9,888 nt of DNA from a virus (Duplodnaviria; Heunggongvirae; Uroviricota; Caudoviricetes). Below are positions 3,581 through 9,888 of this stretch, in pieces. The stretch spans positions 1 to 9,888 of IMG/VR virus record IMGVR_UViG_2529292908_000017; one strand, given 5' to 3'. The position numbers and the translations under genes were made by a program. Positions within the stretch are counted from its first letter, which is position 1. Each line of letters starts with the position of its first letter. Below the pieces are notes generated by a model, which made no database searches, had not been told where the DNA came from, and saw only the letters and a program-made list of their open reading frames with translations.

Positions 3581-3880
3581 ATGAAAAATAAAAATTCTGG
3601 CGTTACTGCCAGCGGCCCCGCTCGTCCTGAATTTATGAACGGCGATATTTACCGCGATAAATATGGCGGCATGGTAACGATTAAAGGCGTGGCAGAACGG
3701 CGCATCACCTACCGTCGTGAAGGCTACGAATATGATTGCGTGATGCCTGTTTATCAGTTTCGGCGTGATTTTTCTCTGGTACAGGCAGCGCCCCGCAGTA
3801 AACCAACCAGCAGGGAGAAAGCACGCGCCAATATTCAGGAAATAAAAAAGATGCTTAACGTATTCAGGGGTAAAAAATGA
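3581..3880 (+). CDS. Hypothetical protein (99 aa), translationally coupled to the primase
   Basis: ORF with GGAG upstream; its TGA stop (3878-3880) overlaps the primase ATG (3877-3879) as ATGA. Protein-like composition; family not recognised. Confidence 0.6.
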   Translation: MKNKNSGVTASGPARPEFMNGDIYRDKYGGMVTIKGVAERRITYRREGYEYDCVMPVYQFRRDFSLVQAAPRSKPTSREKARANIQEIKKMLNVFRGKK

Positions 3881-5625
3881 AACTGGCACCGAACGTAAAA
3901 AAACAGCCACGCGGAATAAAACACAAAGACACAGAGGTAATTATTTTCGCGGGTAGTGATGCCTGGTCGCACGCGAAACAATGGCAGGAGCAGGATGGCC
4001 CCGCATCCGGCGATAATGTGCCGCCTGTGTGGCTTGGGCCAAATCAGCTTGCCGAACTTGATGCACTGAAAATTGTTCCGGATGGGAAAAAGCGCGTAAG
4101 GCTGTACCAGGCCGGAGAACTGGATTTGGTGGAGACCAAAAAGATTGGTCAGAAGCTGGCGGCAGCAGATATTCAGGACGCAAATTTTTACCCCGAAGGA
4201 ATGCACGTCCAGAAGTGTGAAAACTGGCGGCGCTATCTGAATGCTGAGCGTGAAAATATTGCCGCAGGGCTTACCATGCCGGAGCAGAAAAATACGCAAC
4301 TGGCACAAATGGCAGACAGTGAGCGCGCGCAGCTGCTTGCCGAGCGCTTTGATGGCGTTTGTGTGCATCCTGAAAGTGAAATCGTTCACGTATGGCGCGG
4401 CGGGGTATGGTGTCCGGTCAGCACAATGGAGCTGAGCCGCGAAATGGTGGCGATCTATTCAGAGCACAGGGCCACTTTCAGCAAGCGCGTAATCAATAAC
4501 GCCGTGGAAGCGTTAAAAGTTATTGCCGAACCAATGGGCGAGCCGTCCGGCGATTTGCTGCCGTTCGCCAATGGTGCGCTTGACCTGAAAACGGGGGAAT
4601 TTTCCCCGCACACGCCGGAGAACTGGATCACCACGCACAACGGCATTGAGTACACGCCACCAGCACCAGGGGAGAACATCCGCGATAACGCGCCAAACTT
4701 TCATAAATGGCTTAAGCACGCAGCCGGAAAAGACCCGCGCAAGATGATGCGTATATGTGCCGCGCTGTACATGATTATGGCGAACCGGTACGACTGGCAG
4801 ATGTTTATTGAGGCCACCGGAGACGGCGGGAGCGGTAAAAGTACATTCACGCACATAGCCAGCCTTCTGGCAGGGAAACAGAACACGGTAAGCGCTGAAA
4901 TGACATCGCTTGATGATGCTGGTGGACGTGCGCAGGTTGTCGGGAGTCGTCTTATCGTCCTGGCTGACCAGCCGAAATATACAGGCGAAGGAACGGGCAT
5001 CAAGAAAATCACGGGCGGTGACCCCGTGGAAATTAACCCGAAATATGAAAAGCGTTTTACGGCGGTAATCAGGGCGGTGGTGCTGGCGACCAACAACAAC
5101 CCGATGATATTCACCGAACGGGCCGGAGGTGTGGCACGTCGTCGCGTGATTTTCCGTTTCGACAATATCGTCAGTGAGGCCGAAAAAGACAGGGAGCTAC
5201 CGGAAAAGATTGCGGCTGAAATCCCTGTGATTATCCGCCGATTACTGGCGAACTTTTCCGCCCCTGAAAAGGCACGGGCTTTACTCATTGAACAGCGTGA
5301 CGGTGATGAAGCACTGGCGATAAAGCAGCAAACGGATCCGGTTATTGAGTTTTGCCAGTTCCTGAATTTTCTGGAGGAAGCGCGCGGCCTGATGATGGGG
5401 GGCGGTGGCGATTCAGTGAAGTACACGACCAGGAACAGCCTTTACCGCGTCTATCTGGCGTTTATGGCATACGCAGGCAGGAGCAAACCGCTAAACGTAA
5501 ATGACTTTGGCAAGGCTATGAAGCCAGCCGCGAAAGTTTACGGACATGAATATATTACGCGGAAAGTTAAGGGAGTAACGCAGACTAACGCAATAACAAC
5601 AGACGATTGCGACGCGTTTTTATAA
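3877..5625 (+). CDS. Phage/plasmid primase-helicase, P4-family C-terminal domain / D5-like SF3 NTPase (satellite pri-rep type)
   Basis: 582-aa ORF with AGGGGT RBS. Walker A P-loop ATGDGGSGKST, followed by motifs typical of D5 / P4-alpha-type helicases (LIVLADQP Walker B-like, VVLATNN). Immediately followed by an iteron array. N-terminal ~300 aa not assigned. Confidence 0.88.
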   Translation: MKLAPNVKKQPRGIKHKDTEVIIFAGSDAWSHAKQWQEQDGPASGDNVPPVWLGPNQLAELDALKIVPDGKKRVRLYQAGELDLVETKKIGQKLAAADIQDANFYPEGMHVQKCENWRRYLNAERENIAAGLTMPEQKNTQLAQMADSERAQLLAERFDGVCVHPESEIVHVWRGGVWCPVSTMELSREMVAIYSEHRATFSKRVINNAVEALKVIAEPMGEPSGDLLPFANGALDLKTGEFSPHTPENWITTHNGIEYTPPAPGENIRDNAPNFHKWLKHAAGKDPRKMMRICAALYMIMANRYDWQMFIEATGDGGSGKSTFTHIASLLAGKQNTVSAEMTSLDDAGGRAQVVGSRLIVLADQPKYTGEGTGIKKITGGDPVEINPKYEKRFTAVIRAVVLATNNNPMIFTERAGGVARRRVIFRFDNIVSEAEKDRELPEKIAAEIPVIIRRLLANFSAPEKARALLIEQRDGDEALAIKQQTDPVIEFCQFLNFLEEARGLMMGGGGDSVKYTTRNSLYRVYLAFMAYAGRSKPLNVNDFGKAMKPAAKVYGHEYITRKVKGVTQTNAITTDDCDAFL

Positions 5626-6861: not shown

Positions 6862-7902
6862 ATGAGTGATTTATATTCGCCAGCCATGTTAATACAGGTT
6901 GTTAATGCCGAAGATATTCAATGGCAGATTAATTCTTTATTTATAAACCTGTTTTTTAAGCGAGTCGTTACATTTGAGACGCGGGATATTGCGCTTGATA
7001 TTATTGACGATCCAGACATCCCGATGGCTGCATTTTGTTCCCCTATGGTTGGTAGTAAAGTCTCACGCGATGAAGGCTACGAATCAAAAGTAATTCGCCC
7101 TGGCTATATGAAGCCAAAAAGTAGTATCGACCCAAATAAAATAGCCGTTCGTCAACCAGGCGTATCACCTGAACAATTCAATGCATATTCATCACGCAGT
7201 TTCAAAATAAAGCGAGCGTTAGTAAGACAAGCGCAGGCAATTCGTGCGCGTATTGAGTGGCTTGCTGTTCAGGCGGTTACAACGGGGAAAAATATCATTG
7301 AAGGCGATGGAATTGAACGTTATGAACTGGACTGGAATATAAAACCACAAAATATTATCACGCAGTCCGGCGGCACGGAGTGGAGCGGTAGAGATTTATC
7401 AACATTTGATCCAAACGATGACATCGAAGAGTACGCAGAAATCAGCGAAGGTACTACAAATATCATCGTAATGGGCCGCAACGTATGGAAAAAATACCGC
7501 GCCTTTAAAGCAGTAAAAGATTGCCTTGATACTCGACGGGGATCTAATTCCATTCTTGAAACGGCCCTGAAAAATCTTGGGGATTCTGTAAGCTTCAAGG
7601 GTTACGTTGGCGATGTTGCTATTGTGGTATATAGCGGACGTTATACCGACGAGGACGGCAAAGAAAAATATTTCCTTGATCCTGATTTGATGGTGCTTGG
7701 CAACACATCATTACAGGGCATCGTTGCCTACGGTGGCATTCAGGATCCTGAGTTAATCAGAATGGGGCTGACTAAAGCCGAACTTGCGCCGAAAAATTAC
7801 ATCGTACCAGGTGATCCGGCTATTGAATATGTGCAGACGCACAGCGCACCGCAACCAATACCGGCCCGCATCAATCGTTTTGTTACCGTTCGCATTGGTT
7901 AA
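6862..7902 (+). CDS. Major capsid protein, phage lambda gpE family
   Basis: 346 aa with AAGAGG RBS. Long colinear matches to remembered lambda gpE: NIITQSGGTEWSGRDLSTFDPNDDIEEYA (lambda NITQSGGTEWSKRDKSTYDPTDDIEAYA); FKAVKDCLDTRRGSNSILETALKNLGDSVSFKGYVGDVAIVVYSGRY ... MVLGNT (lambda FKAVKEKLDTRRGSNSELETAVKDLGKAVSYKGMYGDVAIVVYSGQY ... MVLGNT). Confidence 0.9.
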   Translation: MSDLYSPAMLIQVVNAEDIQWQINSLFINLFFKRVVTFETRDIALDIIDDPDIPMAAFCSPMVGSKVSRDEGYESKVIRPGYMKPKSSIDPNKIAVRQPGVSPEQFNAYSSRSFKIKRALVRQAQAIRARIEWLAVQAVTTGKNIIEGDGIERYELDWNIKPQNIITQSGGTEWSGRDLSTFDPNDDIEEYAEISEGTTNIIVMGRNVWKKYRAFKAVKDCLDTRRGSNSILETALKNLGDSVSFKGYVGDVAIVVYSGRYTDEDGKEKYFLDPDLMVLGNTSLQGIVAYGGIQDPELIRMGLTKAELAPKNYIVPGDPAIEYVQTHSAPQPIPARINRFVTVRIG

Positions 7903-7911
7903 GGGGGAGCA

Positions 7912-8253
7912 ATGGCTACTCATTACACTGAACTCATGGCTGGCACTGAAGCACTGGTTACTACGTTGGGGATATTTTCAGCTAATAAAGGGGTAATTCC
8001 TGCATTTACGCCACTGATGCAAGAAGATGCAACTGGTGCACTGGTGGTATGGGATGGAACGAGCGCAGGCAAAGCTGTTTATGTTTCCGCTGTACAAATC
8101 GATACAGCGACAAAAACGCAGGCTCAGGTTTATAAAACCGGCGTCTTAAATGTTGATGCTCTGAACTGGCCTGAGTCTGTAACACAACTATCAGCAAAAG
8201 TTGCTGCGTTTGTTGGCTCAGGTATTTCTGTTCAGCCGCTGGCACGTGTGTGA
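7912..8253 (+). CDS. Head decoration protein, phage lambda gpD family
   Basis: 113 aa with GGGGGAG RBS. Matches remembered gpD: TPLMQEDATGALVVWDGTSAGKAV (lambda [24 protein letters not shown]), YKTGVLNVDALNWPE (YKSGTFRYEDVLWPE), AAFVGSGISV (TAFAGTAISIV). Confidence 0.85.
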   Translation: MATHYTELMAGTEALVTTLGIFSANKGVIPAFTPLMQEDATGALVVWDGTSAGKAVYVSAVQIDTATKTQAQVYKTGVLNVDALNWPESVTQLSAKVAAFVGSGISVQPLARV

Positions 8254-8262
8254 GGTACGAGA

Positions 8263-8607
8263 ATGATTGAAAGAGATAGTCAGCTACGAGAGCTATTAGA
8301 TATCGATGACAAAATGAGTTTAAGCGAGCGCCTTGTTGATATGGATCAGGTAGTGGAGCTTACAACCCTTAGCCGTCGCACATTGCTAAACCTTGAGGCT
8401 CGCGGAGAGTTCCCCGAACGCGTACAGGTTACGAAAGGGCGCAAGGCATGGTATTTAAGCGAGGTTGTTGCGTGGATTAACAACATTCCGCGCGCATCAA
8501 ATTATTGCCTTGTTCCCACCCCCGAAAAACCTGATGCGGCGTTATGCCTCAAGATTGAACGCGCCAGGCGTAATGCCCTGAAAGGACGCAATAAGTTGAT
8601 TGGTTGA
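8263..8607 (+). CDS. AlpA/MerR-like helix-turn-helix DNA-binding protein (114 aa)
   Basis: GAGG RBS. Central segment VVELTTLSRRTLLNLEARGEFPERVQVTKGRKAWYLSEVVAWI fits the AlpA / excisionase-type HTH pattern, with N- and C-terminal extensions. Lies between the decoration gene and cos. Confidence 0.65.
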   Translation: MIERDSQLRELLDIDDKMSLSERLVDMDQVVELTTLSRRTLLNLEARGEFPERVQVTKGRKAWYLSEVVAWINNIPRASNYCLVPTPEKPDAALCLKIERARRNALKGRNKLIG

Positions 8608-8631
8608 TGAAATTAGGGCCCGTTCTGGCTG

Positions 8632-8830
8632 GCGGGTCCTTTCCGGCGATCCGGCAGGCTACGGGGCGGCGACCTCGCGGTTTTTCGCTATTTATGAGCC
8701 TTTTCAGGGGGGTGGTGGTGGTTTTGTTGTTTGATCTATCTTTATGAATGAAAAGGGAAAGATGCAAGCAATACACCAACCTGAAGCAGTAATTAAGTTG
8801 GTGTATTAATGAAATCTCATCTGATGAACA
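8632..8830 (+). other. cos site 1 (+ orientation): lambda-like cosQ/cosN (cosN 8664-8675, GGGCGGCGACCT) followed by a divergent cosB-like region up to the terS start
   Basis: GCGGGTCCTTTCCGGCGATCCGGCAGGCTACG-GGGCGGCGACCT-CGCGGTTTTTCGCTATTTATGA is near-identical to the remembered lambda cos junction. Downstream lacks lambda R-site-like GAAACGACA elements but has an 11-bp perfect inverted repeat (8770-8780 / 8797-8807). Confidence 0.75.
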
Positions 8831-8837
8831 AAAAAAC

Positions 8838-9350
8838 ATGGCGAAAAGCTGCCGTGTAAGTGCGACAGCGTTCGACAAGTGGGGAGTAACTCCCGTTGAG
8901 CGTAAAGGCCGTGAGGCGTTTTATGATGTTGCCAGCGTGATAGAAAATAGGGTTAACAATGCAATTAGCCAGCTTATAAACGACAAAGGCGAGATTGACG
9001 ATGATGAACTTTTACGAGTCAGGATCAGATTACTGACAGCACAGGCAGAGGCGCAGGAACTTAAAAACGATCGCGATCGCGGTGACGTGATTGATACTGA
9101 GTTTTGCCTGTACGCGCTTTCAAAGCTGGCGAGTCAGATTTCATCAATCATGGACAGCCTCCCGCTTACTATGCAAAGGAGCTTCCCACAGATTACCCCC
9201 GCCATGCTGGATAGGCTTAAAAGGGAAGTGGTTAAAGCCTGTAATGCCAGTGCCAGAGTTGCCGACAACCTCCCACAGATACTGGCTGATTACTTGAAAG
9301 AAACAACCGGAAACGTACCGGAAAAGTTGCTACAGAAGAAAGGCGAGTAA
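8838..9350 (+). CDS. Terminase small subunit, lambda Nu1 family, with divergent N-terminal DNA-binding region
   Basis: 170 aa. C-terminal two-thirds matches remembered Nu1: LTAQAEAQELKNDRDRGDVIDTEFCLYALSKLASQISSIMDSLPLTMQRSFPQ (lambda LTRAQADAQELKNARDSAEVVETAFCTFVLSRIAGEIASILDGLPLSVQRRFPE). N-terminal ~45 aa only loosely similar. An upstream ATG at 8824 (MNKKTW...) is out of frame by 1 nt across an A7 tract. Confidence 0.85.
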   Translation: MAKSCRVSATAFDKWGVTPVERKGREAFYDVASVIENRVNNAISQLINDKGEIDDDELLRVRIRLLTAQAEAQELKNDRDRGDVIDTEFCLYALSKLASQISSIMDSLPLTMQRSFPQITPAMLDRLKREVVKACNASARVADNLPQILADYLKETTGNVPEKLLQKKGE

Positions 9351-9369
9351 CAGACGCGCAATTATTGAA

Positions 9370-9580
9370 CAAAACTGAGAAACGACATGAAAGCGTCATA
9401 AATCGCCATTTTAGATGATTACCGTGTCGTTTCTTTTTATTGTGTATCTATTTAAAAACAAATAGTTATGTTCGAGAAGTACCGACATGCTTTTTCCAGA
9501 AAATTTTTCATAAACAGATAAAAACCGCGAGGTCGCCGCCCCGTAACGGGTCCATAATTCCAGGAAGGACCCGACGACAC
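9370..9580 (-). other. cos site 2 (inverted): cosN at 9530-9541 with a lambda-like cosB (R3 / IHF-I1 / R2 / R1-like elements) on the terS-proximal side
   Basis: The reverse complement reads ...CCCGTTACG-GGGCGGCGACCT-CGCGGTTTTTATCTGTTTATGAAAAATTTTCTGG ... CGAACATAACTATTTGTTTTTAAATAGATAC ... AAAGAAACGACACGG ... CATGTCGTTTCTCAG, paralleling the remembered lambda left end (cosN, I1 IHF site CGTCATAACTTAATGTTTTTATTTAAAATACC, R2 GGAAACGACAGG, R1 CTGTCGTTTCC). No terminase gene follows in this orientation. Confidence 0.7.
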
Positions 9581-9606
9581 CAGACAATCAGAACGATGGG
9601 TGCACA

Positions 9607-9888
9607 ATGACAGAAGCCGAAATACTGGGATTAATCCGCCGTGCTGGTGGAATCAGCCAGCAGACTGACGAACAGGCCACGCAGCCGGACAGCGTGACAG
9701 CCGAAAATTATGCGCGTGTTGTTGCTGAGGTGATGCGCCGTGATGGTATCCAGCTTAATGATGTGGATATGCGCAACATACGGATCCGCGTTCTTGAAAT
9801 GCTGGCCTACCGTCGCCGCGTGCAGACGTACAGGGAAAAAGCAAAAATTACGTACCACTGGAAGAAGCCGGAGCGGTTACGGCGGTAA
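9607..9888 (+). CDS. Hypothetical protein (93 aa)
   Basis: Complete ORF ending at the last base of the window (TAA 9886-9888). Weak RBS. No family recognised; Arg-rich C-terminus. Confidence 0.45.
   Translation: MTEAEILGLIRRAGGISQQTDEQATQPDSVTAENYARVVAEVMRRDGIQLNDVDMRNIRIRVLEMLAYRRRVQTYREKAKITYHWKKPERLRR

Follow-up and report, generated by a model that had tools for sequence, protein, structure and literature searches.

The DNA analysed here, referred to below as the window, is a stretch of 9,888 nucleotides from the IMG/VR virus record IMGVR_UViG_2529292908_000017. Judging from its genes, the element it carries is an Escherichia coli satellite of lambda-like phages, namely a cos-type phage-inducible chromosomal island (PICI) of the EcCICFT073 family. 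We studied its packaging module of about 0.9 kb, in which two cosN sites face each other across terS, a gene for a small terminase subunit (TerS) of the Nu1 family. There are exactly two copies of GGGCGGCGACCT, the cohesive-end sequence found at lambda bp 1-12, in the window: one on the plus strand (8664-8675) and one on the minus strand (9541-9530). By chance, about 0.06 matches with at most one mismatch are expected, and two or more matches arose in 0 of 200 shuffles. Both cosN sites lie within a 38-nt inverted repeat whose arms (8660-8697 and 9508-9545) are 92% complementary and share an identical stretch, TACGGGGCGGCGACCTCGCGGTTTTT, over their first 26 nt; a second, shorter inverted match connects the cosQ cores (8633-8646 and 9560-9573). 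A first-pass annotation of this DNA had described two inverted cosN sites with a common core of about 26 bp, and both features were found exactly as described. Its outline of the anatomy, with an own-type cosB beside a Nu1-like gene at one site and a phage-type cosB without a cis terminase gene at the other, also proved correct, although several parts of it needed to be extended.

The first site, cos1, reads rightward on the plus strand. Its cosQ region (8632-8663) has the core GGGTCCTTTCCGG at 8634-8646 and matches lambda at 28 of 33 positions, counted by eye, from cosQ to the cosN nick; cosN (8664-8675) is followed by an I2-like spacer (8676-8709) that is common to lambda-like phages. Across cosQ, cosN and I2 (-33 to +46), 68 of 79 positions are the same as in lambda, and in a BLAST comparison with 50,697 phage records the similarity of cos1 to phages spanned 8632 to 8709 only. 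Beyond this point lies an island-specific cosB (8710-8808) with three candidate TerS-binding repeats: R3' (GGTGGTGGTGG, 8711-8721, bp 48-58 from the cohesive end), R2' (ACACCAACC, inverted, 8773-8781, bp 110-118) and R1' (GTTGGTGT, 8797-8804, bp 134-141). The outer two repeats are co-oriented and the middle one is inverted, which is the layout of R3, R2 and R1 in a lambda-like cosB (PMC9026076), and an 11-nt perfect inverted repeat (8770-8780 and 8797-8807) is also present. R3' resembles R3 of phage N15 (GAGGTTGTTGTTT, bp 48-60) and lies at an equal distance from cosN. Thus, the earlier description of a lambda-like cosQ next to a non-lambda cosB holds, with the amendment that this cosB is not featureless and is probably N15-like.

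The gene between the sites, terS (8809-9350, plus strand), encodes a homologue of lambda Nu1 and N15 gp1 (Pfam Phage_Nu1, 8.1e-23), with an intact frame of 170 aa at 8838-9350. In related islands, TerS has 180 aa and starts from an ATG equivalent to that at 8809; in the window, a 1-nt deletion in the A7 run at 8830-8836 puts this first ATG out of frame and costs the gene either its first 10 codons or its function. The deletion is found in only 2 of 31 loci of the TerS class defined below, namely in the window and in strain UM146, whose terS is marked as frameshifted by RefSeq. The 180-aa TerS of the relatives is 36% identical to lambda Nu1 end to end, including the C-terminal part (E=6e-34), and the protein nearest to it in the phage collection is N15 gp1 (45.5%). 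When examined for both the winged helix and the C-terminal region, the 180-aa proteins aligned over their full length with Nu1 and N15 gp1, so that TerS would pair a DNA-binding winged helix of the N15 kind with a C-terminal part like that of Nu1. BLASTP found no similarity between TerS and RppA (E=1.2). Sequence searches of the Protein Data Bank returned only an AlpA structure, for the upstream open reading frame (ORF), and nothing relevant for TerS; these searches recovered neither RppC nor lambda Nu1. Since N15 gp1 is the phage protein closest to TerS and R3' is similar to N15 R3 in both sequence and spacing from cosN, cos1 and terS together appear to be an N15-like cos-terS module with its own specificity, in which TerS would bind the three repeats and recruit the large terminase subunit (TerL) of the helper.

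The second site, cos2, reads leftward on the minus strand. Its cosQ region (9542-9574), with the core CGGGTCCTTCCTGG at 9573-9560, is conserved in all related islands found and adds to the first-pass annotation, which had listed no cosQ here. It is followed by an exact cosN (9530-9541, bp 1-12 as in lambda) and by I2 (from bp 13) and a phage-type cosB at 9365-9529. Within this cosB we recognised an R3-like element (CATGTCGGTAC, 9489-9479, bp 53-63; lambda, 53-63), an A/T-rich I1-like element (9470-9449, bp 72-93; lambda, 72-94), an R2-like element (GAAACGACA, 9433-9425, bp 109-117; lambda, 114-124) and an R1-like element (TGTCGTTTC, 9387-9379, bp 155-163; lambda, 151-161). R2 and R1 form an inverted repeat, with R2 inverted as in the lambda-type order R3-I1-R2-R1. 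Similarity to phages extends from 9575 to 9423, through R3, I1 and R2, at 82.9% identity for phage PhiR5_1 and 73% for lambda. Past R1 come the 3' end and stop codon of terS on the opposite strand, and no cognate terS-terL pair follows in cis. By its sequence, cos2 is a complete phage-type cos without a cis terminase gene, and the lambda-like cosB that had been proposed for it is confirmed, with its elements at the lambda positions. An origin of this site in an unrelated neighbouring prophage was considered and rejected: cos2 lies inside the island, before a conserved 93-aa ORF, in every relative examined.

The assignment to the EcCICFT073 family follows from Pfam domains and from the gene order in comparison with E. 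coli CFT073. A tyrosine integrase gene (1-1242) occupies one end of the window, followed by a DUF4222 protein gene, a D5-type primase gene (D5_N, 3877-5625) and a gene for a single-stranded DNA-binding protein, which lies between the primase and capsid genes; an integrase at one end and then a primase/replication module is the arrangement characteristic of the family. Upstream of the packaging module, in the CFT073 order, are genes for a gpE-like major capsid protein (6862-7902; Phage_cap_E, 3.2e-41) and a gpD-like decoration protein (7912-8253; HDPD, 2.6e-16), the equivalents of c1499 and c1500. Among the window ORFs tested with Pfam, none had tail, portal, lysis or large-terminase domains. 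EcCICFT073 itself has the same gene order in CFT073, next to phoQ, with cosN at 7559 (+) and 8309 (-) of our CFT073 locus (L002) on either side of a 144-aa gene (7660-8094) that matches rppA (c1503) in length and position. The window departs from the family in that the gene between its cos sites encodes a Nu1-family TerS and not an Rpp. Of 5426 complete E. coli genomes, 605 carry the region 8400-9888 collinearly; the island of UM146 and that of strain Res13-Lact-PEB17-18 are inserted between yljB/cspD and clpS.

Several features of the flanks were also recorded. An AlpA-like gene (8263-8607) lies directly upstream of cos1 in the window, at a position that is held in most relatives by a gene for a 137-aa protein of PHROG 1999. 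The left flank of the window was matched by only one complete E. coli genome (NZ_CP062855, 90% identity), and the window thus combines two island lineages in a mosaic. On the other side, cos2 is followed by a 93-aa ORF of PHROG 1561 (9607-9888, plus strand), present after cos2 in every family member examined. Its start is about 65 nt from cosN2, which places cosQ2 within its upstream region; a scan of genome contigs for this ORF gave one Shigella locus, without the cosQ2 30-mer. A one-mismatch cosN, GGGCGGCGACCC, is found inside the primase gene of UM146 (7941-7952 of L001) and CFT073 (3384-3395 of L002). The window lacks this sequence, and it also lacks a strong hairpin resembling a terminator (9-bp stem and T run) that EcCICFT073 (7501-7522 of L002) and UM146-type islands have immediately upstream of cosQ1. 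This CFT073 hairpin was the sole exception in promoter and terminator scans round the module, which otherwise performed no better than on shuffled sequences; given its position, rpp or terS may have its own promoter between the two cos sites.

A two-cos arrangement is not in itself new. It was published in 2018/2019 by Fillol-Salom et al. for EcCICFT073, the prototype Gram-negative PICI, whose two cosN-bearing sites were named cos1 and cos2 (PMC6092414), and the window is a variant with TerS instead of Rpp. In that work, a plasmid into which either cos1 or cos2 was cloned became transferable by lambda and phi80, and deletion of cos1 lowered the transfer of the island, deletion of cos2 raised it and deletion of both abolished it (PMC6092414). 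RppA was found to bind the helper TerS, the complex recognising the cosB of cos1 only; no phage cosB was identifiable at either site according to the authors, and the question of why certain PICIs carry a pair of differing cos sites was posed in print (PMC6739421). From our sequence comparison, the statement on phage cosB holds for lambda and phi80 and not for phages deposited later. Murialdo and Feiss (2022) confined their analysis to cos1, for which they placed a proposed R3 equivalent at bp 48-65 (PMC9026076). Our literature search found nothing on the inversion of PICI cos sites, on the origin of cos2 or on the PhiR phages.

To place the window among its relatives, a 30-mer from the cosQ2 side was used for a survey of IMG/VR, which yielded 63 loci. 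In all 63, cos2 is on the strand opposite cos1. We classified the loci by the spacing between cos1 and cos2 and by the gene between them: a TerS class (866-868 nt, 180-aa TerS), an RppA class (739 nt, 144-aa Rpp), an RppB-like class (759-760 nt, 146-aa Rpp), a class without a gene (524 nt) and a single chimera, L048 (625 nt, truncated rpp). The cosB of cos1 is conserved in the TerS class. Six of the 63 loci (L010, L019, L024, L042, L046 and L051), all in this class, share one common deletion that extends from just past the terS stop codon into cosN2, with loss of cosB2 and four cosN bases, and are thus natural variants without cos2.

For the cosB of cos2, at least five types were distinguished behind one constant cosQ2. 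Type a (ATGTCGT), that of the window, is PhiR5_1-like. Type b (CAGATCC; e.g., L018) was assigned no phage counterpart, since its only match in the phage collection was a weak one (71%) to a partial record, SerU-LTIIb, in which no cosN was found. Type c (GGTCCGACATG, L005) is 21-like and matches the 21-like cos of CFT073 prophage 4. Type d (CCGGACAT), that of EcCICFT073, has 98.3% identity to five PhiR12 phages along a 117-nt stretch, which in PhiR12_1 immediately precedes Nu1; the identity starts at cosN, the cosQ sides being different. Type e (GGTTGTTGT), found in RppB-like islands and in those without a gene, has the N15 R3 motif and is homologous to the cosB of cos1 in TerS islands. Because otherwise similar TerS islands differ in their cosB type, the exchange of a cassette between the conserved cosN/I2 core and a point just past R1 is implied, and the comparison indicates that the cosB of cos2 is swapped like a cassette between islands. 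The chimera L048 has a PhiR12-like cos, its cosB and the first nine Nu1 codons in place of cos1, joined in frame with the 3' portion of rpp; as read from its sequence, this locus is direct evidence for phage-island recombination at this position.

Such a recombinant could also mean that cos2 is a non-functional scar of past recombination with a helper, kept since it is harmless, and the natural deletions of cos2, together with the rise in EcCICFT073 transfer after its removal (PMC6092414), point the same way. The conservation of the site speaks against this explanation. All 57 surveyed loci that retain cos2 (the window, three reference loci and 53 from IMG/VR) have at most one substitution in its cosN, and cosQ, I2 and the ordered R elements are kept across the five cosB types in the cos2 sequences examined, with R2 and R1 unchanged among the type-a copies listed. 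Moreover, if the loss of cos2 raises transfer, a useless site would be expected to have been lost in more than one deletion lineage. We therefore regard the scar explanation as unlikely and prefer the reading that cos2 is a working entry for packaging.

The first-pass annotation had further suggested that the segment between the inverted cosN repeats might be invertible, exchanging cosB specificity, and that both orientations should be looked for in related genomes. Hypothetical inverted junctions were built and searched in the complete E. coli genomes, and both orientations were found in TerS islands (5 inverted versus 605 native), in RppA islands (15 versus 67) and in islands without a gene (3 in one orientation and 9 in the other), although many of the inverted genomes are possibly clonal. 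In WP4-S17-ESBL-08, a 727-nt segment is 100% identical to that of CFT073 when inverted, with rppA on the opposite strand; in PM4-5, inverting an 854-nt segment gives 95.8% identity to that of UM146, and the intact terS lies on the opposite strand. The islands without a gene, whose inner segment is 512 nt long, gave four IMG/VR loci for each orientation (L015, L053, L065 and L066 versus L031, L037, L052 and L069). Their segments are 99.2-99.6% identical once reverse-complemented, with the flanks in one fixed orientation (600-nt left flank, 97.5-100% identical; right flank, 90-100%), and have a cosB of the PhiR12 type at one end and of the N15 type at the other, with remnants of rpp 3' ends placed head to head. 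Strain GF4 (NZ_CP172217) has two such islands, one of each orientation. The breakpoints lie inside the identical cosN core. Assembly errors were considered as a source of the inverted copies and rejected: the repeat, 38 nt in the window and about 50-60 nt by eye in the longest relatives, is shorter than sequencing reads, and the inverted form recurs in independent genomes and in IMG/VR contigs. These observations suggest that the segment between the cos sites flips in nature. There are also signs that the two repeats exchange sequence. In L033, both cosN sites have the same G-to-T change (GGGCGTCGACCT) between flanks that are still of the cos1 and cos2 types, which suggests gene conversion or an exchange of ends between the repeats; L018 and L074 have a cosQ2-type sequence at cos1.

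We read the inversion as most probably a side effect of the inverted repeats. Where the segment carries no gene, the two orientations come closest to balance (4:4 and 3:9), as neutral recombination would predict. Next to the segment, neither the window nor any of the relatives examined has a recombinase or invertase gene; the only recombinase in the window is the island integrase, 7.4 kb away. Since each cosB keeps a cosN and an equivalent cosQ after inversion, flipping changes polarity, and perhaps transcription, without changing packaging specificity; accordingly, the invertible segment of the first-pass annotation is retained and the proposed swap of cosB specificity is not. A functional switch would nevertheless fit some of the data. 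Flipping might toggle the expression of terS or rpp, or of the 93-aa ORF, and so alternate between a helper-blocking and a helper-tolerant mode; the two orientations are both found in nature, with counts of 15:67 for RppA and 5:605 for TerS islands and breakpoints inside the cosN core, the genes are intact in the inverted copies, and the RppA of an inverted copy has an identical protein accession. Against this stand the lack of an invertase gene, the unchanged specificity, the balance of orientations in precisely those islands that have no gene to switch, the possible clonality of many inverted genomes and the promoter scans, which did no better than chance. We consider such a switch very improbable. 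In its most elaborate form, the cos-bounded cassette would be flipped by recombination, or by terminase cuts at both cos sites followed by rejoining of the ends; the two ends of the small fragment are equivalent, so it could re-anneal either way. The island would then alternate between two states: as a pirate, it would express its own TerS or Rpp, use cos1 and block the helper; as a hitch-hiker, it would use the unmodified helper terminase through cos2. The cassette would thus be an invertible element that recombines at packaging sites and has no invertase of its own; we mention this idea as a long shot.

The reading that we favour, and consider rather probable, is that the module provides two independent packaging entries, cos1 for the island adaptor and cos2 for the helper terminase. 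In this model, cos1 would be the cognate site of the adaptor, which is TerS here and Rpp with the helper TerS in EcCICFT073; the island TerS would bring the helper large terminase to the island DNA, and packaging would start rightward from cos1. As a copied helper-phage cos on the other strand, cos2 would be bound by an unmodified helper terminase that matches its cosB, which would package leftward, so that it could serve as a second entry independent of the island protein. This independence would matter in the window, where terS is frameshifted. The opposed orientation may insulate the two entries from each other. Termination in lambda-like phages requires cosQ (PMC6739421), and as cosQ would be needed on the upstream side of cosN, a facing cos presumably could not end the other run; both runs would then yield whole multimers, while two co-directed sites 0.9 kb apart could give products with the terS segment deleted or duplicated. 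Recombination within the conserved cosN/I2 core at one end and just past R1 at the other would exchange cosB2, and the same inverted repeats would occasionally flip the whole segment.

The anatomy of the module, its homologies, the diversity of its cassettes and its natural inversions can be read directly from the sequences compared. That both sites function, and that cos1 is used with the island protein, is taken by analogy from the published work on EcCICFT073. We infer the binding of TerS at cos1, the use of cos2 by a helper TerS and the insulation of the two runs. Of the three meanings that the first-pass annotation had offered for the paired sites, dual entry thus fits best, given a cos2 cosB that is a phage cassette and two sites that both work in EcCICFT073 (PMC6092414), although the roles assigned to them are our deduction. 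The remaining one, a decoy, supposes that many copies of a helper-type cos soak up or misdirect the helper terminase and lower the phage yield, packaging from cos2 being incidental. A genuine phage cosB at cos2, the interference of PICIs of this family with helper packaging (PMC6739421) and an island transfer that is not reduced by cos2 deletion (PMC6092414) would all suit a decoy. However, interference by EcCICFT073 was mapped to rppA alone, the deletion of which restored plaques (PMC6739421), cos2 plasmids were transferred, so that the site is productive, and a decoy would have no need of the conserved outer cosQ. The decoy hypothesis gained no specific support, and we judge it quite unlikely.

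Several points weigh against two entries. The first is experimental: the deletion of cos2 from EcCICFT073 raised its transfer by lambda and phi80, and cos2 is thus a cost there (PMC6092414). Both phages are mismatched to the PhiR12-type cosB of that island, and the result bears on unmatched helpers only; the raised transfer fits occasional cutting at a non-cognate cos2 near cos1. The inducing prophage of CFT073 itself has, by its sequence, a 21-type cosB, which is likewise mismatched to EcCICFT073 cos2. As for the window, its cosB2 is just 73% identical to that of lambda and 83% to that of PhiR5_1, and the cognate helper is only a candidate; the use of the cos sites and the binding of TerS in this island are deduced from sequence. 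The 1-nt deletion in terS makes the use of cos1 in this particular copy uncertain. Finally, cos2 is dispensable, as the natural deletion in 6 of the 63 loci demonstrates.

With respect to the literature searched, three elements are new: cos2 as a phage cos cassette, the relationship of cos1 and TerS to N15, and the natural inversion. The comparison offers a testable answer to the published two-cos question, namely that cos2 was copied from particular lambda-like phages and is swapped as a cassette, the sources being PhiR12 for the prototype, where the match is near-exact, and PhiR5_1/lambda-like, 21-like or N15-like phages for other islands. If this is true, the range of helpers open to each island is both recorded in its cos2 and widened by it, and the TerS variant, which about 11% of complete E. 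coli genomes carry, joins the strategies of an own TerS and a borrowed cos in one module. The natural inversions suggest that packaging sites can also serve as recombination substrates that rearrange a satellite.

Among known systems, EcCICFT073 is the closest to the window, with which it shares the family, the gene order, a convergent cosN pair round a packaging-specificity gene, the conserved cosQ2 and the downstream 93-aa ORF. The differences lie in the specificity determinants: where EcCICFT073 has an Rpp, a cos1 cosB of the Rpp type (CACCACCACCAC) and a PhiR12-type cosB at cos2, the window has a Nu1/N15-type TerS, full-length in homology, an N15-like cos1 cosB with three repeats and a PhiR5_1/lambda-type cosB at cos2. 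Lambda has an identical cosN and a similar cosQ and I2 at both sites of the window, but it has one cos followed by Nu1-A, whereas the window has two facing cos sites and no large terminase gene. The cosB of N15 is a single R3 (PMC9026076). N15 gp1 is the closest phage relative of TerS (45.5%), and the N15 R3 at bp 48-60 is similar to R3' at bp 48-58; in contrast to N15, the window has the lambda cosN sequence, and in cos1 another two inverted repeats precede the start codon, whose position is bp 146 and not, as in N15, bp 89.

The inversion recalls the segments flipped by dedicated invertases in phages and bacteria, such as the Mu G segment with Gin, the P1 C segment with Cin and the Salmonella segment with Hin. 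Like these, the EcCICFT073-family segment is short, is bounded by inverted repeats and occurs in both orientations in natural isolates; it differs in that there is no adjacent invertase, the repeats are cos sites and flipping makes no alternative product. In packaging, the nearest parallels are pathogenicity islands of Staphylococcus aureus (SaPIs). In pac SaPIs, a satellite TerS redirects the helper TerL, which is similar to what we propose for cos1, although the host clade is different and the likeness is one of logic only. In cos SaPIs such as SaPIbov5 and SaPIbov4, the satellite carries a copy of the helper cos, similar in logic to cos2, and two putative cos sites have been reported in SaPIbov4 (PMC6092414). 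Unlike either kind of SaPI, the window appears to combine its own TerS and a copy of a helper cos in one 0.9-kb module.

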